Below are positions 4,766 through 50,314 of a stretch of DNA of 64,000 nt, piece by piece. Positions within the stretch are counted from its first letter, which is position 1. Each line of letters starts with the position of its first letter. The notes beneath the pieces were generated by a model. The model worked only from the letters and a program-made list of their open reading frames with translations, searched no databases and was not told the DNA's origin. The position numbers and the translations under genes were made by a program. Source of the stretch: an uncultured Clostridia bacterium (lineage in GTDB: Bacteria; Bacillota; Clostridia; TANB77; CAG-508); NCBI GenBank assembly GCA_944393325.1, contig CALXZU010000003.1:1497-65496 (forward strand). The letters run 5' to 3'.

Positions 4766-6740
4766 ATGAAAGACAAAAGAAAAGAAGAAAATAAAGGAAT
4801 AACATTAATATCTTTAGTAGTAACTATTGTGGTTTTGTTAATATTAGCCGGAGTAAGTATATCAATGCTAACAGGAGAAAATCGGAATATTATCACAAGC
4901 AAGTGTTGCTAAAATAAAAACAGAATTAGCAAGTTATAAAGAGCAAGTGGAATTATTTAAAATAGAACAAATATCTAAAAATAATGGATTTTTAGATGAG
5001 AGTTTAACAGCAGGAAAAAGTAATTTATTTTATAATACACAAAAAGAAGAAGAACAAGGAAATGGGACAATAAAAGATATAATAGAAAATATAAGTGATA
5101 GCTATTTTGAAAAAATGGAGATAATAAAAGGAGAGTTATTAATAAACACAAAAGACAATAATGAAATAGAAATAGCACAAAGCTTAGGAATAAATGTAAA
5201 TCCATATGATATAGATGAAAATGGAGTATTATTATCAACAGGAAATAATTTAGCATTAATGGACGAAAATGGAACAGTAACAATACCAGATAATGTAACA
5301 GAAATAGGAGAAGGAGCATTTGCAAATGAGGGGTTAAAAACAATAATAATACCAGGAACGGTAAAGAAAATACAAGCAAATGCATTTGCATATAATAGTA
5401 CATTAGAGACAGTAATAATGCAAGAGGGAGTTGAAGAGATAGGAAGAGAAGCATTTAGAAATTGTTCAAATCTAAAAAATGTAACATTACCACAAAGTTT
5501 AATTATAATGAAAGGATATTCATTTTTATCTTGTGCTTCATTACAACAAGTATCAATACCTGAAAAAGTGGAAAATATAGAATCACACACTTTTAATGGA
5601 TGCTACAGCTTAAATAAAGTAGAACTAAGTGAGGGATTAAAGAAAATAGGCAAAGGAGCATTTCGTGATACAAGTTTTTCGGAAATAATAATACCGTCAA
5701 CAGTTGAAACAATGGAAAATAATATTTTTTTTGGAAATACTAAGTTAAACAAAATTACGGTAAATGAGAAAGATGGAGAAGAAGCAAAATTTGTGTATGA
5801 AGAGGGGTTACTAATGCCGAAGGATAAAAACTCAATATTATTTGCTTCAGATAATTATTTAAAAAGTATAGATACATTTAAGATACCAAACGGAATTACA
5901 AATTATGAATTATCTATAAATAATTATAAAAATATAAAAAAAATAATTATACCTGAAACTGTACAAAATATAACAATATATGATGGAGGAACTTTCCCAA
6001 ATTCAATAGAAGAAGTAGAAATAGAAGGTAATAATCAAAAATTTGCTGTGTCAACAGAAGATAAAATATTATATACGAAAGATACAAAGCAAATAATATT
6101 ATGCTATTCAAAAGAAGAAATTGTAGATTTAGAAGATGAAGAAAATAGTATTGGTATATTAAATACAGCAATGAATTCTTTTATTGCAGCAGAAAACGCA
6201 AAGACTATAATTTTACCTAATTCATTACAAACTATTGGAAATCAAACTTTTAAAGGAGCATCTAAAAATCTTCAAGAATTGAAAATAGGAAAAAATGTAA
6301 CTAATATAGATGCATTGTTCAAATATACTCACTATTATGGAACAGTAACAATAGATTCAGAAAACAAAAATTATGTAGTAGAAAATAATGTATTATATAC
6401 AAAAACAGAAACTAAAACATTAGTGACAGTTTTGTATCAAATAACAGGAGCATTTACAATCAATGATTCTGTAAAAATTATAGGTTATAGAGCATTCCAT
6501 AATCAGAATCAAATGACAAATGTAGTAATACCAGATGGGGTAAATGAGATAAGGGACTCGTTTAATTATTGTAGTAAATTAACAAGTATAGAAATACCAA
6601 ATAGTGTAGAAGAAATTTCAGAATATTGCTTTGCGAATAGTAGTAATTTAGAAAAAGTAACAATTTATAATGAAAAATTATTAGAAACAGCGCCATGGGG
6701 AGCAACAAAAGGAGATAAAGTAATAGATTTACAAAAATAA
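4766..6740 (+). CDS. Pilin-like N-terminus + BspA-type leucine-rich-repeat surface protein; needs +1 shift at in-frame CGG 4883-4885
   Basis: The ATG at 4766 encodes MKDKRKEENKGITLISLVVTIVVLLILAGVSISMLTGEN, then CGG. Frame 0 stops 9 codons later. The +1 frame (GGA at 4884) reads GILSQASVAK and runs without a stop to 6740. LRR repeats of the form IP..V..IG..AF..C..L follow. Arithmetic: 4883-4766=117 and 6740-4884+1=1857, both multiples of 3. Confidence 0.8.
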
Positions 6741-11829: not shown

Positions 11830-12030
11830 TTTATATTTCCTTTTTTACAATATTAGTATATTTTTATATTATAATAATAAATTATAAAAGTCAAATTTAA
11901 AAAAATGTATAATATTACAAAACAAGTGGGCAAAATCCTAAATAAAACAAAAAGTCAAAATACCTAATAAATTATTATTAGTTTTATAAATGATAAAAAA
12001 CCTGTTAAAATGAAAGAAATTTAACAAGTT

Positions 12031-12246
12031 CTATTTGTATTTTTCTTTATTATTAGTTAGTTCAGCAATATAATCTAAAGAAGTGTTATAGAATTTAGCC
12101 AAAATAATAGCAAGCTCAAATGGTAGATCTCTTTTTCCTGTTTCGTATAGACTATATTGTTGTTGTTTAATATTTAAAACATTTGCAACATCTTGTTGTT
12201 TTAAATCATTATCTTCTCGTAAATCTTTTAATCTTTTCAAATACAT
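12031..12246 (-). CDS. XRE-family HTH transcriptional regulator
   Basis: 71 aa: LKRLKDLREDNDLKQQDVANVLNIKQQQYSLYETGKRDLP. It is divergent from the pilin-like LamG gene. Confidence 0.8.
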   Translation of the reverse strand: MYLKRLKDLREDNDLKQQDVANVLNIKQQQYSLYETGKRDLPFELAIILAKFYNTSLDYIAELTNNKEKYK

Positions 12247-12352: not shown

Positions 12353-13516
12353 ATGTATAAAAAAGAAAATGGAATAACACTTATAGCCCTAGTTATTACA
12401 GTGATTGTTTTATTAATTTTAGCAAGTGTCTCAATTGCTATGCTAACGGGGAGAACCGGAATACTAAATCAAGCAAAAAAAGCAAAAGAGGTAACAGAAA
12501 TAGCAAGTGAGGAAGAATATATAAGATTAATAATTATAGAAGAAGAATTAACAAAAGAAAAAATAGGAGAAGAGTTAAAAGAGGTAAAATTTAATACAGT
12601 AGAAGACACAAAAAGTATAATAGATTCAGAAACAGGAACAACATATGCAAATGGATGGTATTATTTAAAACCAGAAGATGTAACAGATTATGAATTAAAA
12701 AATTCTTATATAATAGACTATGAAACAGGAGAATTTATAAAATTCAATGAAGAAAAACATAGAATAGTAACAAATGAACTACTTTGCATAAAAGATGGAT
12801 TAGTATATTCAGCAGATCCAAAAAACATAACAAATTCTAATTCCTGGGGAGATGCAATACTACATAACTTTAAAGAAGGAGAAGAAAACAGTGGCTGGAC
12901 GGAAAATAGTTTAATGTTCGATGGAATAGATGATGGAATAGAAGTGAAAGATAATTCTGATTATAGTAAAGGAATAACATTAGAGATATATTTTACATTA
13001 AAAGGTAAAGGAAGTTCAAATATAGCACAAATATTAATGATGAAAAGAACTAAGGCAAGTAATGGTTTTTTTCTTTACTTGAATTATGAGAATAGTGAAA
13101 AAGCAACATTAACAATAGACATAGGTGGAAGTGGATGGGGGATTCAAGATGAAGAAGGAAATTGGATAATGAACAATAGATTTACTACAAATACAAATAT
13201 AGAAGAAAATAATATGTATTATATTACATATACATATAATCCTGAGATAAAGAATGATAATGGAGTATTATATATAAATGGAGTAAAAACTCAAACAACC
13301 AATTTAGGAAATATACAAAATTTAATAAATACTCCTGAAAATACGCCAATACAAATAGGATCAGATATATATGAAACTTATAGACCAGAAAATGATACAG
13401 AAAATCGTAAATATTCGTTCTATGGAGAAATATACGCATCAAGAGTATATAATAGACCATTAACAGAAAGTGAAGTTAAGTATAATTATGAGATGACTGT
13501 AAATAATAGTAATTAG
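12353..13516 (+). CDS. Pilin-like N-terminus + LamG/concanavalin-A-like lectin domain protein
   Basis: The N-terminus is MYKKENGITLIALVITVIVLLILASVSIAMLTGRTGILNQAKKAKE. The C-terminal Laminin_G_3-type pattern is MFDGIDDGIEV...FYGEIYASRVYNRPLTESEVKYNYE. It is a close paralog of 27885..29015. Confidence 0.8.
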   Translation: MYKKENGITLIALVITVIVLLILASVSIAMLTGRTGILNQAKKAKEVTEIASEEEYIRLIIIEEELTKEKIGEELKEVKFNTVEDTKSIIDSETGTTYANGWYYLKPEDVTDYELKNSYIIDYETGEFIKFNEEKHRIVTNELLCIKDGLVYSADPKNITNSNSWGDAILHNFKEGEENSGWTENSLMFDGIDDGIEVKDNSDYSKGITLEIYFTLKGKGSSNIAQILMMKRTKASNGFFLYLNYENSEKATLTIDIGGSGWGIQDEEGNWIMNNRFTTNTNIEENNMYYITYTYNPEIKNDNGVLYINGVKTQTTNLGNIQNLINTPENTPIQIGSDIYETYRPENDTENRKYSFYGEIYASRVYNRPLTESEVKYNYEMTVNNSN

Positions 13517-13673: not shown

Positions 13674-14966
13674 TTATATACAAAATACAGCATATAATGG
13701 TACAGATTTAATATTATTTTCTAAACCAAAGTTTTTTTCAGAAATACGTATTGCAGTTTTTTGGTTATATTTTTGCATATAAAGATTTAGACTTTTTGAT
13801 TTTGTATGTTCTTTAGATTTTACCTCAATAGGTATTATTTCTGTTTCTTTTTGAATTAAAAAATCAATTTTGGCTCTTCCATTTGATTCCCAATAATAAG
13901 TTTCATAACCATTTATTCTAAGTTCATTTTCAACATAGTTTTCTGTTAAAGGTCCCATTTCTATCATAAAAAGACCAGTATTTAGATCTACTTGATATAA
14001 CGGATAACCAGCTTTATTTACAAATAACCCAACATCATTCATATATAGTTTAAAAGATGTCAAATCCTTGTACATTTCTATTGGTATTTGAGGGTTAGCC
14101 TTAAATACTTGATGAACTATTCCACTATTTTTAAGCCATAAAATAGCTTCACCGAATATACTAGATGTTCCGCCTTTAGAAATAACCTTGTATTGGAATT
14201 TTTGATTTTCTTTTGCTAATTGTAAAGGAATAGAATCAAATGCAGAAACTATTCTGTTAGATTCATCATTTTTTGCATATCTTGTCATATCATTTTCATA
14301 TGATTCTAAGATTTCTGCTTGAATATCAATTGTTCCAATTACTTTTCTTTCATCTAAATATGTTTGTACTACTTCTGGCATACCACCAACAACTAAATAA
14401 GTTCTATATAATTTTAAACAAAGACAGTGAATATCATTATCCATTTTTTCATTTGAAATATAGTGTTTTTCTATTTCCTTTATTAAATTTTCTTTTCCCA
14501 ATGCTTTTAAAAATTCTTTAAAAGATAATGCATACATATTTATTATTTGTACTTTACCCACTGGAAATGAATAATTCTTGCTATTAATTTTTATTCCAAG
14601 TAAAGAACCAGCAGCTATTATATGATACTGGGGTAGTTCTTCACAAAAATATTTTAAAGAAGTAAGGGCTCTTTCGTTAGCTTGTATTTCATCAAAAAAA
14701 ATTAAAGTTTTTCCTGGTGTAATTTTTTCATTAAAAAATAATTCCAATTTATTAATTATTTCAAGTGGGTTAATATCATCATTTATTTGATTACTAATCT
14801 GTTTATTTTTTTCAAAATTAACATATACTACATTTTCATAATACATATTTCCGAATTTTTTTACTATATAAGTTTTTCCAACTTGTCTTGCACCTTGTAC
14901 AATTAAAGGTTTTCTTTTTTTAGAATTCTTCCATTCAATTAATTTTTTAATAATTTCTCTTTCCAT
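13674..14966 (-). CDS. AAA+ ATPase with DUF4143 C-terminal domain
   Basis: 430 aa with Walker A GARQVGKT and Walker B LIFFDEIQ, and a typical AAA_14/DUF4143 layout. One of three paralogs in the window. Confidence 0.75.
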   Translation of the reverse strand: MEREIIKKLIEWKNSKKRKPLIVQGARQVGKTYIVKKFGNMYYENVVYVNFEKNKQISNQINDDINPLEIINKLELFFNEKITPGKTLIFFDEIQANERALTSLKYFCEELPQYHIIAAGSLLGIKINSKNYSFPVGKVQIINMYALSFKEFLKALGKENLIKEIEKHYISNEKMDNDIHCLCLKLYRTYLVVGGMPEVVQTYLDERKVIGTIDIQAEILESYENDMTRYAKNDESNRIVSAFDSIPLQLAKENQKFQYKVISKGGTSSIFGEAILWLKNSGIVHQVFKANPQIPIEMYKDLTSFKLYMNDVGLFVNKAGYPLYQVDLNTGLFMIEMGPLTENYVENELRINGYETYYWESNGRAKIDFLIQKETEIIPIEVKSKEHTKSKSLNLYMQKYNQKTAIRISEKNFGLENNIKSVPLYAVFCI

Positions 14967-18568: not shown

Positions 18569-19370
18569 AAAAAGATTGGGATAAAAAATGAAATGATTTT
18601 TTTATTAGCTGAAAGTTAGTATTATCAAGAGTCGAGTGAATTTTAAATTACTAAAAACTACATTGTTATATCAATGCTTGCAGAGGTTTTGAACCACTTG
18701 AAATCCTTAAACCGTTGCAAACACTAAGGCTAAATGCTATCGAAAATTAATTTTATTTTTTTATCCTGAATTAAATTTGCTTTTCATTTCTCTTATTTAC
18801 TATTATTATTTTACCAATAATTTATACATTTATAATATAAAAAAATAATTACCAATGCCTTATTTGCAATTAAAAAGCAATAAAAAGTATAGAAATTCCT
18901 ATACTTTTATTACTAGATTTATTTAGATATCTTTTTATCAAATATCACATTCAACAACTGTTACATTTGAAGTTGATTTAAATGAATTTTTCATTCCTTT
19001 AGGTATATATACTGTTACTTTTGCATTAACTCCTTTACAAAATTGCACAGCATTGTTTAATTTTTTTTATACTATTTTTATCTGACTATTACTTAAACCA
19101 GTATAATTTATAAAACATGCTTGTATGCTTTCAATTTGTGTTTGATTAATAAATAAATTTTCTGGAATATCTCCTGTAATTCCATTTAACATTTCTAAAG
19201 CTGCCATAAGTATTATTTCCATATCCGTTACTACTACTACTAAAGAAAAATATTTCCGAATCTGAAATATTACTGCAAAAATGCCATCTATGTATGAAAA
19301 ATGCATTCCTTATTGGCTTTTTTTCCAATTTTTCTAAAAAAGGAGTCAATGGTCAAGGAAAATCAAAGTG

Positions 19371-21207
19371 CTACTCGACTACTAACACGCTGCGGAAACC
19401 GTAAACGGTGGTCCGCATGCCCAACATTGTCACCCAAGCCACACAAACCGATACCAGCCGTAATATCCCAAGCCCCACCTCGAGGGAAGAAGGGTTCTTC
19501 TGAAGCTCCGTCTTCTTCTAATGTTTGACCAAACCATGCTTTTCCTGAACCTATTCCACTAGATGTTTCCCATATTGCATCTCCAAAAATCTTATCCCAT
19601 CCTGTTCCATTATATCCTGATTCAAAATCTTTATTATCTGTTGTTATTGGATTATATGGATATGCTGTTGATAAATAATTAGATGTTCCTGTTGCAAAGC
19701 TATTTCCATACCTTGTTAAAGCACTTACTCCACTATTTTCATATGCTGTTGTATAATCTACTAGACAGCCTCCCATATCATATACTCCATATATATTTCC
19801 TGTTGTACTAGATATAGTTCCATTTCCTTCATCAGAACTACTATTACAATTATTCCATGCATATGATGTTCCATTTGTTCCTACAACTGCATCAGTTAAG
19901 CTACTTTCTCCTGTATATGCCATTACATTTTGACTTGCTTTTCCTGTTGTTGCTGAATATCCTGTTATTGCTGTTATTTTTTCTGTATTATTAGGATTTG
20001 TTACTGGGCTTGATGATAGATTATTATAATCTACTATACTTAAATTATTTTTTGCCTTTTCTTTTTCACTTGTTCCTTCTGAATATCCATACTTACTAAT
20101 TGATAAATATGCTGTTGCTCCCCATTCACTGTTTTTCATTAAATGACTATTTGATAAACTATTTAATCCATATGGATTTCCATTATCATCTAAACTTTGT
20201 GATATATCATAACATTGTGATACTGTTACATAGTTATATCCAAATTTTCTTCCCTTAAATATTGGATAATATAAATTATTTGCTGTATTACTACTTGATA
20301 CTTTTGCACTTGTATCATTTTCTGTTGTCTTTATTCCTGCATCAAATTTTGCTACCCATATTCCTTCTATTTCTTGTCTCCATTCTCCATTATCAAAACT
20401 ATCATATTTGTTTCCATCTGTAAATGCCGGATGCACTACATAGTCTGTATATCCACTATCTGTTATTACTCCTTCTTCATTTCCATTTTTTACTTGGGTT
20501 ATATTTCCTTCTTCATCTGAATATGCATAGCTTGTCCCTGCTACAAATTTTACATCTATTGCTCCACTTGACTGATGATATCCTTCTGTTATTTTATATG
20601 CATATCTTGGTATCCATACAAACATACTTCCTAAATCTTTTTCTGCTACTTCTGTTCCTATAGCTGTATTTTCATCATATGTTCCATCACATAACATTAC
20701 ATTTGCCCATTTCTTATCTTCAGTTGTATAACTATACCATTCAGGGTCATCTTCACTACATATTACCCAGTTTCCACTTTCTACATTATATTTTACTGGT
20801 ATCATTCCTTTTACTAGTTTTGGTGCATTTGCTTTTGTTTCTCCACCTTCCCAATATATTACATTTCCATTTTCTTCTACTAAATATTTATTTCCTTTAT
20901 ATTCCACTACTACTTCATTTCCTAATGATGTTGAATTTGCACCATTTAAATTTTTAGATATATTATCAATTAACCTATCTACATTTATTTTTCCGTCTGT
21001 ATCAATTGCTCCTAATGCTTCTAATTGTACTTCTTCTAATGTTGAAGCTTTTTCTGTTTCATCTTTAGCATTTTGTGCTTGTGTTAATATTCCATTTTCT
21101 CCTGTTAGCATTGCTATACTTACTCCCGCTAAAATTAATAAAACAATTATAGTAATAACAAGTGCAATTAGAGTAATACCTTTGGTTGATTTTAAAACAT
21201 TATTCAT
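19371..21207 (-). CDS. Pilin-like N-terminus + FGE-sulfatase/C-type-lectin-like domain protein; needs +1 shift at in-frame CGG (19401-19399)
   Basis: The N-terminus is MNNVLKSTKGITLIALVITIIVLLILAGVSIAMLTGENGILTQA. The body has MFVWIPRYAYKI, HPAFT, GIWVAKFDAG, NSEWGATAYL and GVYDMGG motifs. Frame 0 ends ...HRLRFPQRVSSRVAL. A +1 shift at TTA CGG T gives ...RGGAWDITAGIGLCGLGDNVGHADHRLGFRSVLVVE with a TAG stop at 19373-19371. That matches the paralog ending ...HGFRCSLIVE at 37171. Confidence 0.75.
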
Positions 21208-23632: not shown

Positions 23633-25664
23633 ATGAATTATAAAGTAGAAGGAGCAATAAGAAGAAATAGAAAATATTTTATTGTATATGCAATACTATG
23701 GATAGTAATTGCCATAGCATTTGTTTCACCATTTAGTTATAGTGCACATGTTGCAGGGCTGGATGGTGAATTTAAATTGGATGTTTTTATAGAAACATTT
23801 GGAACATCTATTACAAATCCAATTGGAACATTAGGAAACTTGTTTTCAAGTGAAGCAGTTGGAGATTTTATATCAACATTGTTGGTAGTAACAATTTTTT
23901 ATACAGTATTTTTCTTTATAGGATTTGTTAGATCAGCACCTAAAAACGAATATTCAGATATAGAGCATGGTTCAAGTGACTGGTCACAAAGAGGAGAACA
24001 ATATACTATTTTAAGTAAGAATAAAGGAATAATTCTTGCAGAGGACAATTACTTGCCATTAGATAAAAGAGGAAATATAAATGTTTTGGTAGTTGGACGG
24101 TTCAGGTTCTGGTAAATCTGCATCATATTCAATACCAAATGCATATCAATGTTTAGGCTCATATGTATTTACAGATCCAAAAGGAGAATTATATGATAGA
24201 ACGGCAGGATATTTAAAAGAACAAGGCTATGATATTAAAGTATTAAATTTAGTAAGACCACAATATAGTGATGGATATAACCCACTTATGCATATTTCAT
24301 CAGAATTAGATGTAGATGTAATAGCAAATACAGTTGTAAAAGGGCAACAATCAGAAAGTTCGAGTTCAGACCCATATTGGGATGATATGGCAGAATTGTT
24401 ATTAAAGGCTTTAATATATTATTTAATAGCAACAAGACCAGAAGAAGAACAAAACTTAGCAAGTTGTGCAGAACTTGTTAGAGCAGCAAATAACAAAGGT
24501 GGAAGTAATTTACTTTCAGAATTAATGAGTCAACTACCATATGACCACCCAGCAAGAATGAACTATAAATCTATCGAAATAGCACCAGAAAAGACATATG
24601 GATCTATCTTAAGCTCATTACAAGCAAAACTTGGTAAATTTGATTCAAAAGAAATAGCAGAGCTAACATCAACCGATACAATAGATTTTGAAGAAATAGG
24701 AAATAAGAAAACAGCAGTATATGTTATATCATCAGACACACATACAGCATATGATTTCTTACTTACAATTTTCTTCTCTCAAATGATACAACAATTATAT
24801 GATTATGCTGATTTAAATGGTGGAAGATTAAAAGAAAAAACATTCTTTATATTAGATGAGTTTGCCAATATAGGTAAAATACCTGATTTTGATAAAAAAA
24901 TATCAACATCAAGAAGTAGAGGAATTTCTTTTAGTGTTATTTTACAGAATGTTGATCAATTAGAGGCAGTTTATGAGAAATCTTATGAGACTATCATGGG
25001 TAACTGTGATACACATGTATTTTTAGGAAGTAACTCATATAAAACAGTTGAATATTTTTCTAAAGCATTAGGAGAAAAAACTATTGAAAGAGATAGTATT
25101 TCTGTAAATAGAGATAGGCAAAACTGGAAAACTGGTAAATCAGTTTCAGATCAAGTCATGGCAAGGGCTTTAATGACTCCAGATGAACTTAGAAGATTAG
25201 ATAATGATTTGTGTATTATTTTTGAAAAAGGTATAAAACCTGTTAAAGCTCAGAAGTATTATTATTTTAAGCATCCTATGGCAAGGAAACTTGCAGCTTG
25301 CGAGATTAGCCACAATGATATTGGAGAAAAGGATAGGGGAGCTTGGAGAAAGTATAATCCTTATAATCCATATGTGGAAGAAGAGGATAATAAGGAAAAG
25401 GCTAAGGATTTGAAAGTTGAGTCTTTAGATGATTTATTTGAAGATGAACCAGAAGATGTAAAGCCTAAAGCAGAGGTAGACACTAATCCTAAAAATGATA
25501 TTAAAGAAGAAAATAGTGGTAAGCAAGATATTCAACCTTTAAGCCTGGAGGATTTTGATGATGCTCCTATTTTACCTCAAGAGCCGGAAGATGATGATAC
25601 TTATGATTTACAAAAAGAGTTAGAGGCTAAGTTTGATGAGTTGTTCGGACCTATTGATGAGTAA
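23633..25664 (+). CDS. VirD4/TraG-type type IV coupling protein (T4CP); needs +1 shift at in-frame CGG 24098-24100
   Basis: Two N-terminal TM helices. Frame 0 reads ...NINVLVVG then CGG and stops 4 codons later. The +1 frame (GGT 24099) gives VVGGSGSGKS, a Walker A motif, and continues into the 24093..25664 ORF, which has Walker B FFILDEF and an acidic tail. 25664-24099+1=1566. Confidence 0.8.
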
Positions 25665-25752: not shown

Positions 25753-25844
25753 AGCAAGTTTTTAGATTCAAGGCTTACGCCTTGCCTGTGGTTTTTCTAC
25801 CCTTTTTATTCCCTACGAAAAACCACTTAATCTAAAAACTTGCT
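25753..25844 (+). repeat. Structured repeat R, copy 1 (three-helix element; candidate ncRNA or miniature element)
   Basis: P1: AGCAAGTTTTTAGATT (25753-25768) pairs perfectly with AATCTAAAAACTTGCT (25829-25844). P2: AAGGC-TTAC-GCCTT (25770-25783). P3: GTGGTTTTTC (25788-25797) pairs with GAAAAACCAC (25817-25826) around the loop TACCCTTTTTATTCCCTAC. It is homologous to 58862-58952. Confidence 0.6.
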
Positions 25845-26057
25845 TTAATTATCGTTTTCAAATAATTCTTTTACATATGAATCTTTATTTTCTAAGTTCT
25901 TTGTAATAAGTTTTTAAAAAATATTATTAAATAATCAAATGTGGAGTAAATTCATCTTGCTATATTTCTGTAATTACTTCTTACTAAAGCATTTCTAATA
26001 CAGAATTTTTCTTAATTACTTAAAAAATGTATAATTAATAATTAAAATGAATATAAT

Positions 26058-26168: not shown

Positions 26169-26180
26169 GGGGGGTTGAGA

Positions 26181-27425
26181 ATGGAAATAAAAAGAGACTA
26201 CTATTTAAAAGAGCTAATAGATAGAATAGATAATGGCTTAATTAAAATAATTACAGGAATTAGAAGATGTGGTAAATCATATTTGTTAAATATAATTTTT
26301 AAAAATTATCTTATAGAGCAAGGAGTTGATAAAGAGCATATTATACAACTTAGTTTAGATGAAAATAAAAATAAGAAATACTTAGAGCCAGATAATTTAG
26401 ATGAATATATAAGAAATTTAATTAAAGATGAAAATAAATATTATATATTATTAGACGAAGTACAAGAAGTTAAAGATTTTGAGGCCGTTCTAATTGGTTT
26501 TATGCATATTAACAATTTAGAAATATATGTGACAGGAAGTAATTCAAAATTTTTGTCATCAGATATTGTAACAGAATTTAGAGGTAGAGGAGATGAAATA
26601 AGAGTATATCCATTATCTTTTTCTGAATTTTATTCTGTATATAATGGTTCTGAAGAAAAAGCACTAAATGAATATTATACTTTTGGTGGATTGCCTTTAA
26701 CTGTACTTTCAAAAACTGATAATACTAAAATAAATTATTTAAGGACACAAAAAGATAATGTATATATCAATGATATTGTAGATAGGAATAAAATACAAAA
26801 TAAAGAAGAATTAGAAATGCTAGTACAAATAATTGCATCAGATATAGGGTGTTTGACTAATCCTTTAAAATTATCAAATAATTTTAAGGAAAGAGACAAA
26901 TTGTCTACAATGACAGATAAAACAATATATAATTATTTAGGATATTTACAAGATGCTTTTATGATAGAAAAAGCTAGAAGATTTGATGTACGAGGTAAAA
27001 GATTTATTGAGACTCCTCAAAAATATTATTTCACAGATATGGGGATTAGAAATTCATTTTTAGATTTTAGGCAAAGTGAAGAAATTTCACATATTATGGA
27101 AAATGTTATATATATAGAATTAAAAAAACGTGGATATAATGTAGATGTTGGTTCTGTTGAAATACGTGATGGTGATAAAAAGAAACAATTAGAAATTGAT
27201 TTTGTTGCAAATAAAGGAAACAATAAAATATATATTCAATCTGCTCTTGAAATGAAAACAGCAGATAAAGTAAAACAAGAACAAAAATCTTTATTGAATG
27301 TAAATGATTTCTTTAAAAAAATAATAATTGTTGGTGATAATGTTAAAAGATCTCGTTATGATAATGGCATTATTTTAATGGGGATTTATGATTTTCTTTT
27401 AGATGAAAATAGTTTAGATTATTAA
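26181..27425 (+). CDS. AAA+ ATPase with DUF4143 domain
   Basis: Walker A GIRRCGKS and Walker B ILLDEVQ. It is a paralog of 13674..14966 and 42948..44153. ATG 26181 follows a GGGGG RBS. Confidence 0.75.
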   Translation: MEIKRDYYLKELIDRIDNGLIKIITGIRRCGKSYLLNIIFKNYLIEQGVDKEHIIQLSLDENKNKKYLEPDNLDEYIRNLIKDENKYYILLDEVQEVKDFEAVLIGFMHINNLEIYVTGSNSKFLSSDIVTEFRGRGDEIRVYPLSFSEFYSVYNGSEEKALNEYYTFGGLPLTVLSKTDNTKINYLRTQKDNVYINDIVDRNKIQNKEELEMLVQIIASDIGCLTNPLKLSNNFKERDKLSTMTDKTIYNYLGYLQDAFMIEKARRFDVRGKRFIETPQKYYFTDMGIRNSFLDFRQSEEISHIMENVIYIELKKRGYNVDVGSVEIRDGDKKKQLEIDFVANKGNNKIYIQSALEMKTADKVKQEQKSLLNVNDFFKKIIIVGDNVKRSRYDNGIILMGIYDFLLDENSLDY

Positions 27426-27747: not shown

Positions 27748-27884
27748 TAGCTACACCTCTTATGAATAATCATAATATAGTAATTAATAAAAAATAATAT
27801 ACTTCAAAGCAGTACTTGACAGACAATGATTTTTAAAGTAAAATGAAATTGGTTTCATATACAAGAGAAAAGGAAAGGAAAAAT

Positions 27885-29015
27885 ATGATTAAAGAAGAAA
27901 AGGGAATTACACTTATTGTCTTAGTAATAACAATAATTGTTTTGTTAATTTTAGCGGGGGTATCAATTGCTATGCTAACAGGAGAAAATGGAATACTTAC
28001 ACAAGCCCGAAAAGCTAAAGATGTAACAGAAATAGCAAGTGAAGAAGAATATATAAGATTAATAATTACAGAAGAAGAAATAACAAAATACAAAATAGGA
28101 GAAGAGTTAAAAGAAGTAGAATTTAATACAATAGAAGATACAAAAAGTATAATAGATTCAGAAACAGGAACAACATATGCAAATGGATGGTATTATCTAA
28201 AACCAGAAGATGTAGGTGATTATGAATTAAAAAATTCATATATAATAAATTATGAAACAGGAGAATTTGTCAAATATGATGAGGGGAAACATAGAATAGT
28301 AACAAATGAATTACTTTGTATAAAAGATGGATTAGTATATTCAGCAGACCCAAAAAACATGACAACTTCTAATTCATGGGGAGATGCCATACTTCATAAC
28401 TTTAATGAAGGAGACGAAAACAGTGGCTGGTCTGAAAATGCATTAATGTTTGATGGAATAGATGATGGAATAGAAGTAAAAGATAATTCAGACTATAGCC
28501 AAGGGATAACATTAGAGATATATTTTAATCTAAAAGGAAAAGGAGCATCAGATATAGCACAAATACTTATGATGAAAAGAACAAATGGATTAAATGGATT
28601 TTTTATGGATTTAAATGGAGATGATAATTCAATTTTTATTGATATAGGAGGATTTGGCTCTGACGAAAAAAATGAGAATAGATTTAAACCAGATGTGCAT
28701 GTGGAAGAAAACGTATCTACTTATATAACTTATACGTATGATCCAAATAAAGAAGAAGAAAATGGCATTTTATATATAAATGGTGAAAAGACAGAAACAA
28801 CAAATTTGGGATTAATAGAAAATTTAGTAAATACTCCTGAGAATACTCCAATACAAATTGGTTCAGATATTTATCAGACCTATAAGCCAGAGGGAGATAC
28901 ATCAAATCGTAAATATCCATTTTATGGGGAAATATACGCATCGAGAGTATATAATAGACCATTAACTGAAAGTGAAGTAAAATATAATTATGAAACAACA
29001 GTGGAAAATAGATAG
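27885..29015 (+). CDS. Pilin-like N-terminus + LamG-domain protein
   Basis: ATG 27885 follows AAGGAAAGG. The N-terminus is MIKEEKGITLIVLVITIIVLLILAGVSIAMLTGENGILTQARKAKD, with GEN-G encoded as GAA AAT GGA and no extra C. The C-terminal LamG pattern is nearly identical to 12353..13516 outside one variable patch. Confidence 0.85.
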   Translation: MIKEEKGITLIVLVITIIVLLILAGVSIAMLTGENGILTQARKAKDVTEIASEEEYIRLIITEEEITKYKIGEELKEVEFNTIEDTKSIIDSETGTTYANGWYYLKPEDVGDYELKNSYIINYETGEFVKYDEGKHRIVTNELLCIKDGLVYSADPKNMTTSNSWGDAILHNFNEGDENSGWSENALMFDGIDDGIEVKDNSDYSQGITLEIYFNLKGKGASDIAQILMMKRTNGLNGFFMDLNGDDNSIFIDIGGFGSDEKNENRFKPDVHVEENVSTYITYTYDPNKEEENGILYINGEKTETTNLGLIENLVNTPENTPIQIGSDIYQTYKPEGDTSNRKYPFYGEIYASRVYNRPLTESEVKYNYETTVENR

Positions 29016-29513: not shown

Positions 29514-30635
29514 ATGAAAAACAAAGGAATAACTTTAATTGCTTTAGTGATAACTATAATTATTTTACTTATATTAGCAGGGGTCTCAATAGTTATGCTA
29601 ACAGGGGAGAATGGAATATTAAATCAAGCAAAAAAAGCTAAAGAAGAAACAGAAGAAGCAAAGAAAAATGAAGAAAATATAATTGAAAATTATGAAGGAT
29701 ATTTAAACAGTTATAGTGGAGAAAATATAGAATTTATAGATAGTTTAGGAAATAAAGTAAAAGTTCCAGAAGGCTTTAGAGTAATAAATCCAGAAGACAA
29801 TGTAGAAGATGGTATAGTGATAGAAGATGTAGTACATGGAGAAACTAAAGGAAGTCAATTTGTATGGATACCAGTGGGAAATGGTATAAAAAAGTCAGAT
29901 GGAACAACATTTGATATTGATTTAAAAAGATATGTTTTTAATGAAGATGGAACTGTAAATGAGCAATTATCTAAAGAAGGTATATCAGACCAATTAAGAA
30001 AATATTCTGAAAGTGATGAAAATTATTATATTGAAGGATTAAAAAATAGTGAAACTGATAATGTGCATGCAAAAGACATCGAAGATTTTAAGGACAAGGT
30101 AGAAAAATCAGGAGGATATTATATAGGTAGGTATGAAGCAAGAATTGAAAATGAACGTAAAAGCAAAGATGAAGAATTAGAACAAGTAACAGTAAAACCA
30201 GATGATTATATATATAATTACGTAACACAAGCTCAAGCAGCAAAAGTAGGTCAAAATATGTACTCGGCCAATTCTAATTTTACCAGTGATTTAGTAAATG
30301 GTTTTGCGTGGGATACAGCAGTTGTATTTTTACAAGAATGTGATGACAGAGAAAATAAGAGTATTTTATATTCAAGGCAAAATAGTTTAAATACAACAAT
30401 ATCGATTAAAGGAACAAATAATCTTACTGTTATGGATAAAATATGTAATATTTTTGATATGGCTAGTAATTGTTATGAATGGACAACAGAGACTTATAGT
30501 AAAAATGGACATACAACTGTTGATAGAGGTGGAGGTTATAATGATACTAGAAATTTTACTACTGGTAGAGGAGATATGAGAACTTTAGAGACATGTGAAT
30601 ATTCGATTTCTTTTAGACCAATTATATATTTATAA
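29514..30635 (+). CDS. Pilin-like N-terminus + FGE-sulfatase (SUMF1)-like domain protein
   Basis: The N-terminus is MKNKGITLIALVITIIILLILAGVSIVMLTGENGILNQAKKAKE. The C-terminal domain has FVWIPVG, GGYYIGRYEA, FAWDTA, NCYEWTTE, DRGGGY and SFRP motifs. Confidence 0.75.
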   Translation: MKNKGITLIALVITIIILLILAGVSIVMLTGENGILNQAKKAKEETEEAKKNEENIIENYEGYLNSYSGENIEFIDSLGNKVKVPEGFRVINPEDNVEDGIVIEDVVHGETKGSQFVWIPVGNGIKKSDGTTFDIDLKRYVFNEDGTVNEQLSKEGISDQLRKYSESDENYYIEGLKNSETDNVHAKDIEDFKDKVEKSGGYYIGRYEARIENERKSKDEELEQVTVKPDDYIYNYVTQAQAAKVGQNMYSANSNFTSDLVNGFAWDTAVVFLQECDDRENKSILYSRQNSLNTTISIKGTNNLTVMDKICNIFDMASNCYEWTTETYSKNGHTTVDRGGGYNDTRNFTTGRGDMRTLETCEYSISFRPIIYL

Positions 30636-35594: not shown

Positions 35595-35715
35595 AATAAA
35601 AGTTTCTTGAGTTTTTAAAACTTTAAGAGACTTTTTAATTACAAAAGAGATAAAATTATTGACAACTATAGAAGTCTATAATATTATAAAAACATAAAAG
35701 AAAGAGAGGTTGAAG

Positions 35716-37171
35716 ATGGGAAAGAAGAAAATATTGTGTTTTATTATATTTATTTTAATAATATTTACTATTGTAACAATATTTGCTGTAAGAAGTATCA
35801 ATATTTCAAAAAGTGAAGAAATAGACGAATGGAATGAAGAAAAACTAGTAAATAGTCCAAAATTATCAGTTGGAATGACGCCGATAATATATGGTGAAAA
35901 TGGAGAAGCGGTTGAAGTAGAAAGCAATGAAGATTGGTATGATTATAAAGTGCAAGAAACAGCAACACAAACAGGAGGAGACAGTCAATGGGCAAATGCA
36001 CAAACTAAAGATGGTAGCCAATGGGTGTGGATACCAAGATATGCATATAAGATAAATTATAATGATGTTGAGCATAAAGAAAACGGAGGAACAATAGAAA
36101 TAAAATTCTTAAAAGGAACAACAAATCTTGATAAAGATAATAAAGACGTAATAGAACAAGGATATAAAGTACATCCAGCATTTCAAAATGGAGAAAATAC
36201 TGGATACGCAAATGGAGAATGGAACAAAGAACTTACGGGAATATGGGTTTCAAAATTTGAAGCAGGCTTTGCAGGGATAGAAAATACTGGTTCAAGCAAA
36301 ATAAAAGCACAAGATACGAATGTATTATATAGTGTAATATCAGGTGAAAATATATATGGAAAAATTGAAGTAAATGAAACTAAAATGAAATATCCAGTAT
36401 TTGTAGGAGGTGCATTTTCTTATAATGGTATAGATATTGGGCAAATGTATAATCTATGTCAAAATTTAAATGCTAGTAATAATCCATATGGGATAAATAA
36501 TGAAAATGAAAATATTCATTTAATGAAAAATAGCGAATGGGGAGCAGTTGCTTATTTAGCATATAGTAATTATGGAAGAAACAAAACACCTATTTCTATA
36601 AACAATGTAGAAATATCTAATATTGATAATGTGCAAACAATCACAGGATATTCAAGCAAAGTAGATGATAATCTGGTAAATACTATTAATTATTCTGAAA
36701 ACCTTGAAAATTATAATGAGAAGTCATTTATTTGGTATTCAGAAAATGGAGGTTTAGCAAGTACAACAGGCAATAAATATGGTGTATTTGACATGGCAGG
36801 AGCAGCTACAGAATATGTAGCTCGGATACCTTGATGATATGGAAATGGAAAATGAAGCATATTTAATAGATTTTGGGGAAGAAAAACAAAGTAATAAGTA
36901 TTTCACAGTATTTAAAAATGATGAAGATAAAAATACTTATGAGAGTAATAAAAATATATATGGAGATGCTACAATAGAAACATCATCTGGAAATGGAACA
37001 TATGAAAGTTGGGACGGAGAAACATCATATTATGTAACAGCAAGATCACCATTTTTCTTAAGAGGGGGAGCATTTAGTGAAGGAGAACTTTCAGGATTGT
37101 TTTCATATTCTGTACATAGTGGACATTCAGGTGGAGACCATGGATTTAGATGTTCTTTAATAGTAGAATAA
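35716..37171 (+). CDS. Signal-anchored FGE-sulfatase/C-type-lectin-like protein; needs +1 shift at in-frame CGG 36823-36825
   Basis: The motif set matches 19371..21207 (QWVWIPRYAYKI, HPAF, GIWVSKFEAG, NSEWGAVAYL, GVFDMAG). Frame 0 reads EYVA, then CGG, then stops. The +1 frame (GGA 36824) reads GYLDDMEMENEAYLIDFG... through ...PFFLRGGAF...HGFRCSLIVE. 37171-36824+1=348. Confidence 0.75.
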
Positions 37172-48948: not shown

Positions 48949-49953
48949 TTGAAGGAATTTACAGAAAAAGAGTTTTTTAGAGCAATGAACTTATTTCCTG
49001 GATTAATTAGTACTTTAAAATTTGCTGAAGAGAGTGAAGAATATAATTTTGGTGATATAGATGAAGAAGTAGAAATACATAATGAACATGATAAACTATA
49101 TAAAGCTATTTTAACTAGACCAAAGGAAATGGAATATGTAATAAGGAAAGTTACAAAAATACAAGAAGACTTAGACATAATACCAGTAAGAAACGAACTA
49201 ATTACGTTAGATTTTAGAGGGAAGCAAGCAGACATAATATATAAGCTAAGAGATAAAGAAGTTTATTTTTTATTAGAACATCAGTCAACACAAGATGAAG
49301 ATATGTCATATAGAGTATTAGAATATGAAACACAAATAATGAATAATAGTTTTACTATGCATGAATTTAAACAAAGATTCAAAGCAAAGGTAATAACAAT
49401 AGTGCTATTTACTGGAATAGGTGGCTGGAAAGGAGCAAAAAGTATAGTAGAAATACAAGAAAGGTTTGGATACAAAATAAATGCCACAGCTAACTATGAT
49501 GGAATAGGAGAGTATAATGTATTAGATATAAATAAATGTATAAAAGAAGAATTATTAAAAGATGACACATTATTAAGTAAAACAATGTTATTAGAAAAGG
49601 TAAGGCATGAAGATGAATTAATAGAAGTATTGGAAGAAATAATACCAACTATAAAAGATGATGAAAGAGCACAAATGATAGCGATAATAAGATATATTTT
49701 GCTAAAAGACTTAGGAAAAGAAGAGGCTAAAAAATTCATAAAAAAATTAGAAGGAGGAATAGATATGGGAGTATTTGTAAATGAATTAAGAATAAACAGA
49801 GAGAAAGAATTAGAAAAAATAAAAAGCGAAGGAAGACGTGATGGAGAAAAAACTGGAAAGTTAGAAACTGCTAAAAATATGCTTAAAGAAAAAATTGATA
49901 TAAGTTTAATAGAAAGAGTAACGGGATTAAAAAGAAATCAATTTATGAAATAG
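48949..49953 (+). CDS. Rpn/YhgA-like PD-(D/E)XK recombination-promoting nuclease / putative transposase
   Basis: The core reads ADIIYKLRDKEVYFLLEHQSTQDEDMSYRVLEY. TTG start. Confidence 0.7.
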   Translation: MKEFTEKEFFRAMNLFPGLISTLKFAEESEEYNFGDIDEEVEIHNEHDKLYKAILTRPKEMEYVIRKVTKIQEDLDIIPVRNELITLDFRGKQADIIYKLRDKEVYFLLEHQSTQDEDMSYRVLEYETQIMNNSFTMHEFKQRFKAKVITIVLFTGIGGWKGAKSIVEIQERFGYKINATANYDGIGEYNVLDINKCIKEELLKDDTLLSKTMLLEKVRHEDELIEVLEEIIPTIKDDERAQMIAIIRYILLKDLGKEEAKKFIKKLEGGIDMGVFVNELRINREKELEKIKSEGRRDGEKTGKLETAKNMLKEKIDISLIERVTGLKRNQFMK

Positions 49954-49981
49954 AAAAATAAAAAAGTATATTAAACGAATA

Positions 49982-50314
49982 ATAGAAATATTGGAAGAAA
50001 TAATACCAACTATAAAAGATGATGAAAGAGCACAAATGATAGCGATAATAAGATATATTTTGCTAAAAGACTTAGGAAAAGAAGAGGCTAAAAAATTCAT
50101 AAAAAAATTAGAAGGAGGAATAGATATGGGAGTATTTGTAAATGAATTAAGAATAAACAGAGAGAAAGAGTTAGAAAAAAAAATGAAAGAAGGAGAAAGA
50201 ACTGGAAAATTATCTGGAAAATTAGAAGATGCTAAAAATATGCTTAAAGAAAAAATAGATATAAGTTTAATAGAAAGAGTAACGGGATTAAAAAGAAATC
50301 AATTTATGAAATAA
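49982..50314 (+). repeat. Tandem duplicate of the last 333 nt of the Rpn-like gene (49621-49953)
   Basis: The DNA is near-identical across EEIIPTIKDDERAQMIAIIRYILLKDLGKEEAKKFIKKLEGGIDMGVFVNELRINREKELEK and the tail KNMLKEKIDISLIERVTGLKRNQFMK. A diverged 17-codon block lies between them. Confidence 0.85.

Follow-up and report, generated by a model that had tools for sequence, protein, structure and literature searches.

In the 64 kb window (by which we mean the whole stretch of DNA from an uncultured Clostridia bacterium that was analysed) the minus strand carries, at 19363..21207, a gene of a family that is targeted by diversity-generating retroelements (DGRs). As it stands in the list of open reading frames (ORFs) the gene encodes a protein of 614 aa; its bounds had been given as 19371..21207 in a preliminary description of this DNA and are thus to be corrected. 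The protein is laid out with a pilin-like N-terminus, followed by a large extracellular part and by a variable region (VR) at the end. More than 7,800 homologs are present in the databases, all of them from uncultured Clostridia of animal guts, and the sequencing runs in which the window sequence was found are chicken-gut metagenomes.

The N-terminus of the protein (KGITLIALVITIIVLLILAGVSIA) is prepilin-like, and its hydrophobic segment (MNNVLKSTKGITLIALVITIIVLLILAGVSIAM, encoded at 21109..21207 on the minus strand) is probably a signal or an anchor, judging from its sequence. The Pfam profile N_methyl (PF07963) was matched below threshold in 28 of 46 family members, a profile search of the PDB by sequence returned weak matches to pilin N-termini alone (E 0.13-0.56), and the pilin Glu5 reads as Ala in the window protein (KG-ITLIA). 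Similar N-termini were found in several other genes of the window, ahead of LamG or LRR domains. Beyond the sub-threshold N-terminus a Pfam scan of the window protein yielded nothing, and thus no match to the FGE-sulfatase family (PF03781) at the gathering threshold; among relatives, 5 of 46 matched PF03781, all sub-threshold (E at least 0.0018).

The fold of the C-terminal part was recognised from its structure model. An AlphaFold model restricted to the last 425 residues (19363..20640, minus strand), built on an alignment of 66 sequences, reached a pLDDT of 88.1 and a pTM of 0.91, and the best PDB match found for it by Foldseek was the DGR variable protein TaqVP (5vf4; E 3e-6, prob 1.00), with further matches to Mtd (1yu0-1yu4), PvdO, TvpA (2y3c) and FGE (2q17). 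The label FGE/C-type-lectin-like that had been given to the gene can therefore be upheld at the level of the fold, although it lies below the Pfam threshold. A model of the full-length protein, in which the C-terminus had a pLDDT below 50 and the Foldseek matches were meaningless, was dropped in favour of the domain-only model. Neither the Rfam scan nor the tRNA scan gave a match in the 64 kb window.

Composition and reading frame of the 3' end of the gene

A clear shift in composition marks the 3' end of the gene. On the coding (minus) strand the 124 nt at 19371-19494 hold 17 A, 26 C, 43 G and 38 T, exactly the number of adenines that had been counted by hand before, against 44% A and 30% GC in the gene body (binomial probability of at most 17 A in 124 nt, ~3e-13). 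This VR segment is the sole 124-nt stretch in the 64 kb window whose G+C count reaches 56 or more (peak, 70 of 124), so that the abrupt, A-poor and GC-rich segment of the preliminary description is real. Its start had been placed at 19494, too far downstream: the zone begins near 19515, ~25 nt further upstream. The additional A-poor part (19492..19517, minus strand) includes the codon GCT at 19504-19506, which encodes the x of EEDGxSEE. This codon position is hypervariable in a sister clade of 580-aa proteins, whose template repeat (TR) covers it, and lies outside the span of TR8 and TR95 (the TRs of the related loci L008 and L095); from the sequence, the extension is possibly a remnant of a longer ancestral VR.

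An internal control is provided by a paralog at 35710..37171 on the plus strand, which has the same fold ending (RGG...GFRCSLIVE), written in AT-rich codons and without the VR scaffold. Its end at 37050-37171 contains 36 A in 122 nt (30%) and has a GC content of 35%; since it reads RGG...GFR with such codons, the fold does not need GC-rich ones. The ordinary codons of this collinear paralog had been described correctly, but the gene does not read through intact, as a frame break near 36830 splits it. The inverted repeats I6-I9 were listed as evidence along with this paralog.

The last strand of the window gene is frameshifted. The ORF 19363..21207 ends in ...GHADHRLRFPQRVSSRVAL, and the remnant of the conserved last strand, YGFRSVLVVE, is found out of frame at 19371..19403 (minus strand) on the basis of the frame-1 translation and the family consensus. 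Alignment with L003, L008 and the TRs places a 1-nt insertion within 19401..19407 (CGTTTAC, minus strand), between GAC CAC CGT T and TAC, the exact inserted base being ambiguous within these seven positions. The residues of the C-terminal peptide reported earlier (...GHADHRLGFRSVLVVE) are indeed encoded, but not in a single frame, as that translation jumped silently over the insertion. The insertion adjoins the position of an AAC AAC AAT run in the TR, and indels in DGR VRs, including frameshifts, typically arise beside AAC runs (PMC5758913). Such frameshifted VR tails occur in ~23% of the top homologs, and the frameshifted protein would presumably be functionally impaired. The ORF is otherwise intact over its 614 codons, so that expression of the gene and selection on it may persist, and this was counted against reading the segment as a relic.

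The variable-region family and its template repeats

The C-terminal scaffold of the homologs, RGGxWxxTxxVGLCGLxDxxGxAxxxYGF[RH]SVLVxE, is common to thousands of proteins. Its behaviour is best seen in the 580-aa sister clade, where 25 homologs that are 96-98% identical differ almost only at ~15 C-terminal scaffold sites; the sequence entropy of the clade is concentrated at ~15 of the scaffold x positions, and it is there that the hypervariability of the VR was seen. Some of the relatives, one of them 81% identical, have a TR on the same strand, 200-350 nt downstream of the VR, and carry a convergent reverse transcriptase (RT), Avd and a MutS-like gene. For instance, in L012 the VR (L012:11604-11747) is followed on the same strand, 353 nt downstream, by the TR (L012:11957-12100), and in loci of this type the opposite strand carries a bAvd gene, an RT gene and a gene with MutS domain I. 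Over the full span all VR/TR mismatches fall at TR adenines in L012 (14 of 14), L013 (14 of 14) and L014 (11 of 11), which stem from three samples. Over the core span the same was observed, with no other differences, in L012 (13 of 13), L014 (9 of 9), L015 (13 of 13), L018 (10 of 10) and L097 (13 of 13); L017 has 10 mismatches at TR adenines and one non-A mismatch, and L095 has 16 at TR adenines and a 2-nt gap.

An RT and/or Avd gene was adjacent to the target in 15 of the 94 loci that were fetched. The same cassette layout with an intact RT of 369-373 aa was found in L015, L018, L066, L067, L074 and L095, among them the closest GTDB genome (L015, 69% protein identity to the window protein) and a locus (L095) with a target that shares 81% identity with the window protein. 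Among the TRs a 5' element (AGGGATTARACTG) is conserved, as is a 3' flank (CACTCTGATACAATGAATA); the VRs share another 3' flank (CACTTTGA..CTTTCCTYGTTCCTTG..CCCTTTT), and the VR/TR pairs of working loci have 35-45 identical bases in common at their 3' end. Some relatives adjoin conjugation genes (VirD4, VirB4-like, sortase); when the window is compared with the neighbourhood of conjugation genes in L012, synteny reaches only as far as the VirD4/TraG homolog. Two proteins with an all-Asn VR were discarded as examples of an unmutated VR: in the locus of P0054 (L002) the 353 nt between VR and TR are missing and the TR sequence stands in the place of the VR, the result of an assembly collapse or a deletion, and P0073, which at first seemed unmutated, was set aside and not used as evidence.

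The combination of avd with a MutS-like (MSL) accessory gene is known as Architecture D, and the location of TR and RT on different strands has also been described (PMC5758913). The relatives of the window gene conform to MSL-type cassettes in carrying a MutS_I-like gene, bAvd and an RT convergent to target, VR and TR, whereas none of the components is present in the 64 kb window. The best structural matches, TaqVP of Thermus aquaticus (5vf4), Mtd of Bordetella phage BPP-1 (1yu0) and TvpA of Treponema denticola (2y3c), resemble the window protein in having the VR at the extreme C-terminus, a scaffold of the RGG...W...GFR type and AAY-templated variable codons. The window protein differs from them in sequence (8-14% identity, global TM-scores of 0.2-0.4), in its much larger, insertion-rich domain and pilin-like N-terminus, and in that TR and RT are missing from the window and the last strand is frameshifted. 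DGRs of Bacteroides diversify type V pilus adhesins (bioRxiv 10.1101/2024.11.15.621889), and these are likewise gut-bacterial DGRs that act on surface or pilus-associated adhesive proteins, but phylum, pilus type and target family are different and the N_methyl match of the window protein is sub-threshold.

The VR core of the window gene (TTCTTCCC...GAGTAGCAC; 19368..19491, minus strand) corresponds to the span that is covered by the TRs of the closest relatives. The nearest TR found was TR95, which matches the window VR at 99 positions; the mismatches comprise 17 at the 33 TR adenines and 6 at the 89 other positions, next to one inserted base, a strong adenine bias over these 122 nt (Fisher p = 1.8e-7). 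At 14 of the 17 replaced adenines the window VR has G or C, which, together with the adenine-poor scaffold that VR and TR have in common, accounts for the GC shift. The variable codons of the window gene are GCT, GAT, ATT, GCT, GGT, GGT, GTT, CAT, GAC, CAC and CGT, and at these codons the TRs have AAT or AAC (GAG AAA in TR95), the third base being kept. TR8 shows 8 non-A mismatches to the window VR, and with 8 and 6 non-A mismatches, respectively, TR8 and TR95 were ruled out as donors.

Downstream of the VR, at 19336..19370 (minus strand), the alignment of VR and TR flanks revealed a 3' flank of the VR type (CACTTTGATTTTCCTTGACCATTGACTCCTTTTTT), which has diverged from the flank common to the VRs of the relatives and absent from their TRs. 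It retains CACTTTGA..TTTCCTTG..CC..TTG..CC..TTTT, with several departures from the VR consensus, and is a candidate homing or target-recognition element. That this flank is still recognisable was also counted against a relic. The homology to TR-partnered VRs and the adenine-biased differences indicate that the segment is, by descent, a DGR-derived VR, and in this sense the original suggestion of a DGR variable region was right, the C-type-lectin (CLec) fold included.

Retroelement components and invariance in the source metagenomes

No TR (A-tolerant ungapped scan and blastn), no RT or Avd (Pfam and tblastn) and no TR-flank motifs were detected in the 64 kb window, which bears out the earlier statement that TR, Avd and RT are absent from it. 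The downstream region (18569..19335), where the relatives carry the spacer, TR, RT, Avd and MSL gene, holds short LRR-like ORF fragments alone, and comparison with the spacers, RT and Avd of the relatives (blastn and tblastn) found no trace of them beyond a likeness to the spacers over the first 28 nt after the VR. Scans of three public collections (genome, metagenome and viral contigs) with a scaffold pattern gave 0 matches each; the pattern was too lineage-specific, as the VRs of the GTDB representatives, which do not include the species of the window, use GGGCTTGTG and not CGGTTTGTG.

We also examined four chicken-gut runs (X1-X4) as Logan contigs, in which minor VR variants below the contig level are invisible. 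The contigs contained no cognate TR at a likeness of at least 80% and no second sequence that shares the 3' end of the VR. In each of X2-X4 one contig without any difference crosses the VR, unbranched and at flat depth, and in X1 the VR is covered by two overlapping contigs, again with zero differences. In the comparison of these runs with the TRs, TR8 was the sole family TR in X2 and X4, a TR95-type TR was present in X1 only and an L012-type TR in X3 only. An RT/Avd-like contig of ~3.1 kb was present in X1, X3 and X4 at depths of 10.2, 17.9 and 28.2, compared to 8-11, 22.3 and 32.5 for the window contig; the similar depth makes an RT in the same genome possible and was counted against a relic. 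The search for a TR-like repeat beside an RT that had been proposed before thus returned no such repeat in the window or in the contigs of X1-X4, and an RT/Avd contig in X1, X3 and X4.

The window VR is invariant. The 90% cluster of the window protein consists of seven distinct sequences on contigs of 3-66 kb, which differ at scattered sites in the first 300 residues and have an identical frameshifted tail. An independent assembly (L001) is 100% identical to the window over 3,388 nt, and the VR DNA shows zero differences in five runs from two studies (Logan contigs). This is the inverse of the pattern of the active 580-aa sister clade, and the heterogeneity of the VR that had been anticipated was not observed at the contig level in the seven proteins and five runs. 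That neither a cognate TR nor heterogeneity was found in these sequences speaks against present-day activity and does not refute a DGR origin. In the clusters of the closest intact relatives, P0003 and P0006, the VRs are equally invariant.

Two sister loci show the same path of decay. In L008 (P0003, 86% identical) the TR is kept at 12024-12146, VR and TR differ by 14 adenine and 2 non-adenine mismatches, and no RT or Avd was found within 10 kb. Across all four runs the depth of the L008 contigs nearly equals that of the window contig, so that the two genes may be paralogs within one genome. The gene of L003 (P0006) passes directly into the downstream flank of the TR, with an IS (Transposase_mut) just downstream, from which the TR was apparently removed by a VR-TR deletion. 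The window locus, with a VR alone that is frameshifted, is the end state of this decay.

Origin and fate of the variable region

The composition, the frameshift, the homology to DGR targets, the A-biased mismatches, the CLec fold, the absence of TR, RT and Avd from the window and the invariance of the VR were all observed directly, and we consider it probable on these grounds that the 3' end of the gene at 19363..21207 once served as a DGR variable region and was later orphaned. The preliminary description had left the choice between a remote and an orphaned target; the latter is preferred to a live remote target, as no cognate TR was found in the window or in the contigs of X1-X4 and the VR is invariant across the strains and samples compared.

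We infer the following order of events. The ancestral locus would have been organised as in the relatives, with the gene, a spacer containing a hairpin, a same-strand TR and, convergent to these, an RT-Avd-MutS-like operon. In reverse transcription of the TR RNA, bases would have been misincorporated at random opposite adenines, and the resulting cDNA would have overwritten the VR and thereby recoded ~13 AAY (Asn) codons of the ligand-binding face of the C-type-lectin-fold domain, a diversified domain displayed on a pilin-like, membrane-anchored surface protein. The window VR would record one such event, in which 17 TR adenines gave way to other bases, in 14 cases to G or C, so that the segment became A-poor and GC-rich in a genome of 25% GC. 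Slippage of the RT in this same, last homing event is the probable source of the extra nucleotide next to the AAC-AAC-AAT run. TR and RT would then have been lost from the locus, and since they are gone from it and the source metagenomes yielded no cognate TR, the allele with the frameshift would never have been overwritten; it would have become fixed and later have gained ordinary substitutions.

The alternative that survives best, although we regard it as rather unlikely, is that the gene is a live remote target, of which the VR is rarely rewritten in trans by a DGR elsewhere in the genome and the frameshift is a resettable OFF state. Remote targets and action in trans are established for DGRs (PMC5758913), and the window VR gene resembles the non-adjacent targets of Treponema and Legionella (PMC5758913) in having no DGR cassette beside it. 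The retention of the VR 3' flank, the RT/Avd contigs at similar depth in X1, X3 and X4 and the ~23% of top homologs with frameshifted VR tails, which make this state common in the family, would fit as well. By definition, however, a remote DGR target differs from a TR of its own genome by A-to-N changes alone (Wu et al. 2018, PMC5758913). For the window VR, unlike these non-adjacent targets, no TR with matching non-A positions was found, the closest TRs showing 6-8 non-A mismatches and an indel, whereas seven of the eight RT-adjacent VR/TR pairs have zero non-A mismatches and the eighth (L017) has one. Moreover, the sole family TR in X2 and X4 is the mismatched TR8, the 3' end of the VR is single-copy and unbranched in X2-X4, and the VR is identical in seven protein variants and five runs. 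Less likely still is the further proposal that a trans-acting DGR still addresses the VR and that the recurrent frameshifted tails represent a DGR-driven ON/OFF switch of a surface adhesin; if true, RT slippage at AAY runs would create OFF alleles, which the next homing event would reset.

It is very improbable that the frameshift was introduced in sequencing or in the assembly of a heterogeneous VR and that the real gene ends in ...YGFRSVLVVE. In this family assemblers are indeed misled by heterogeneous VRs and by VR/TR repeats (as in L002, be it a collapse or a real deletion), but the same insertion is present in independent assemblies, those of L001 and of the seven cluster members, and in the Logan contigs of the five runs from two studies.

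The abruptness of the composition boundary could also reflect a patch acquired from a GC-richer homolog by recombination or horizontal gene conversion, without retrohoming. We give this hardly any credence: this GC-rich module is found, along with a TR, in all family members, whose genomes are equally AT-rich, the differences from the nearest TR have the adenine bias given above, and the third base of the variable codons is preserved (xxT/xxC), as it should be if the templates were AAT/AAC. A pure constraint at the protein level, by which the Gly/Cys/Trp-rich scaffold would force G/C-rich codons without any DGR history, may be dismissed almost entirely, for although the segment does encode many Gly, Trp and Cys residues, the end of the paralog encodes RGG...GFR with ordinary codons and the sister loci have TRs.

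If the segment is the orphaned variable region that we propose, the gene is best annotated as that of a DGR-target-family surface protein with a frameshifted C-terminus, and not as an active hypervariable locus. The type of system has been described already, with its CLec-fold target, Avd, MSL accessory gene and remote and indel-bearing VRs. Where the genome is AT-rich, an A-poor, GC-rich patch at the C-terminal end of a gene can point to a DGR target by composition alone, even after loss of the retroelement. The loci compared here connect, for uncultured animal-gut Clostridia, the decay states of one DGR family: the full cassette, the TR without RT, the deleted TR with an IS and the orphan, frameshifted VR.

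Frameshifted tails and decay states of sister loci

The canonical GF[RH]SVLV ending was absent in 27 of the 116 top homologs (list P0001-P0120) that bear the RGG motif, in most cases through a frameshift inside the variable region (VR) and in a few through a cut at a contig end. One of the frameshifted forms, the homolog P0085, represents 186 member sequences and has a tail (...GRVAL, followed by a stop) in common with the window protein. Two sister loci of the window gene are further decay states: at L008 (the locus of P0003) the template repeat (TR) is kept (12024-12146), without reverse transcriptase (RT) or Avd, and at L003 (the locus of P0006; 11700-11760) the TR has apparently been removed through VR-TR recombination, and a Transposase_mut insertion sequence sits immediately downstream.

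In the window, the place of TR and RT in the relatives of the target gene is occupied by short ORF fragments resembling leucine-rich-repeat (LRR) proteins (18938-19349, minus strand), which lie directly 3' of the target gene. A 115-nt piece homologous to these fragments was found on other contigs of the same chicken-gut runs. The paralog of the target gene (35710-37171, plus strand) has a frame break near 36830, with ...EYVARIP and two stops in one frame versus ...LGYLDDMEMENEA in another, and is therefore probably a pseudogene.

TR surroundings and RT in the relatives

Between VR and TR a hairpin (GCCGATWGTGAAYGAARTTCGCTATTGGC) is conserved in L012 (11800-11960; a locus of the 580-aa sister clade), in L008 (11900-12020) and in the spacer of the related locus L095, and in the same three loci a structured, conserved stretch (GTCGAGAGGGGCAAATGTT..GGACTTTGCCG.G.GATATTGTATC) follows 3' of the TR. 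The TR of the relatives is on the strand of the target gene and convergent to the RT, and may thus be transcribed as the 3' UTR of the target gene.

The RT of the 580-aa clade carries a 1-nt insertion within the conserved GIPIGN motif (L012:12812-12830, also in L002 and L014), which breaks the ORF into parts of 195 and 145 aa; when the frame break is read through, the product matches RVT_1 at 5e-15. The RT region was the same in three samples, whereas the VRs of this clade are hypervariable from sample to sample. The split RT could reflect programmed frameshifting or very recent inactivation, or another RT could act in trans.

Proteins with an all-Asn tail look like unmutated VRs but should not be taken as such. 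In P0054 (L002:11604-11760) this tail is TR sequence fused to the gene, and the 353 nt from VR to TR that L012 has are absent; either the assembly collapsed here or a VR-TR deletion really took place. P0073, which ends in an identical tail at the protein level, was set aside.

Other genes and repeats in the window

In L012-type relatives the target is flanked by a T4SS/sortase neighbourhood, and of its conjugation genes the window shares only that of a VirD4/TraG-type coupling protein (24093-25664), which may be left over from an integrative conjugative element. Downstream of this gene and of a PBP gene lie the copies of an 82-nt non-coding direct repeat (25776-25857 and 58884-58965, 87% identical; TACGCCTTGCCTGTGGTTTTTCTACCC...), for which no Rfam match was found. 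The window further contains two AAA_14/DUF4143 ATPase genes (13674-14966 and 26175-27425) and two copies of a 300-nt repeat (49619-49918 and 49980-50279, 93% identity, starts 361 nt apart).

Another repeat family in the window consists of the N-terminal 140-170 nt of genes that have a prepilin-like hydrophobic N-terminus in common (4947-6740, 12353-13516, 27843-29015, 29514-30635 and about 59514). In these genes LRR (BspA-type) or LamG domains come after this N-terminus, and the prepilin-like segment seems to be a general export or anchor device in this lineage.
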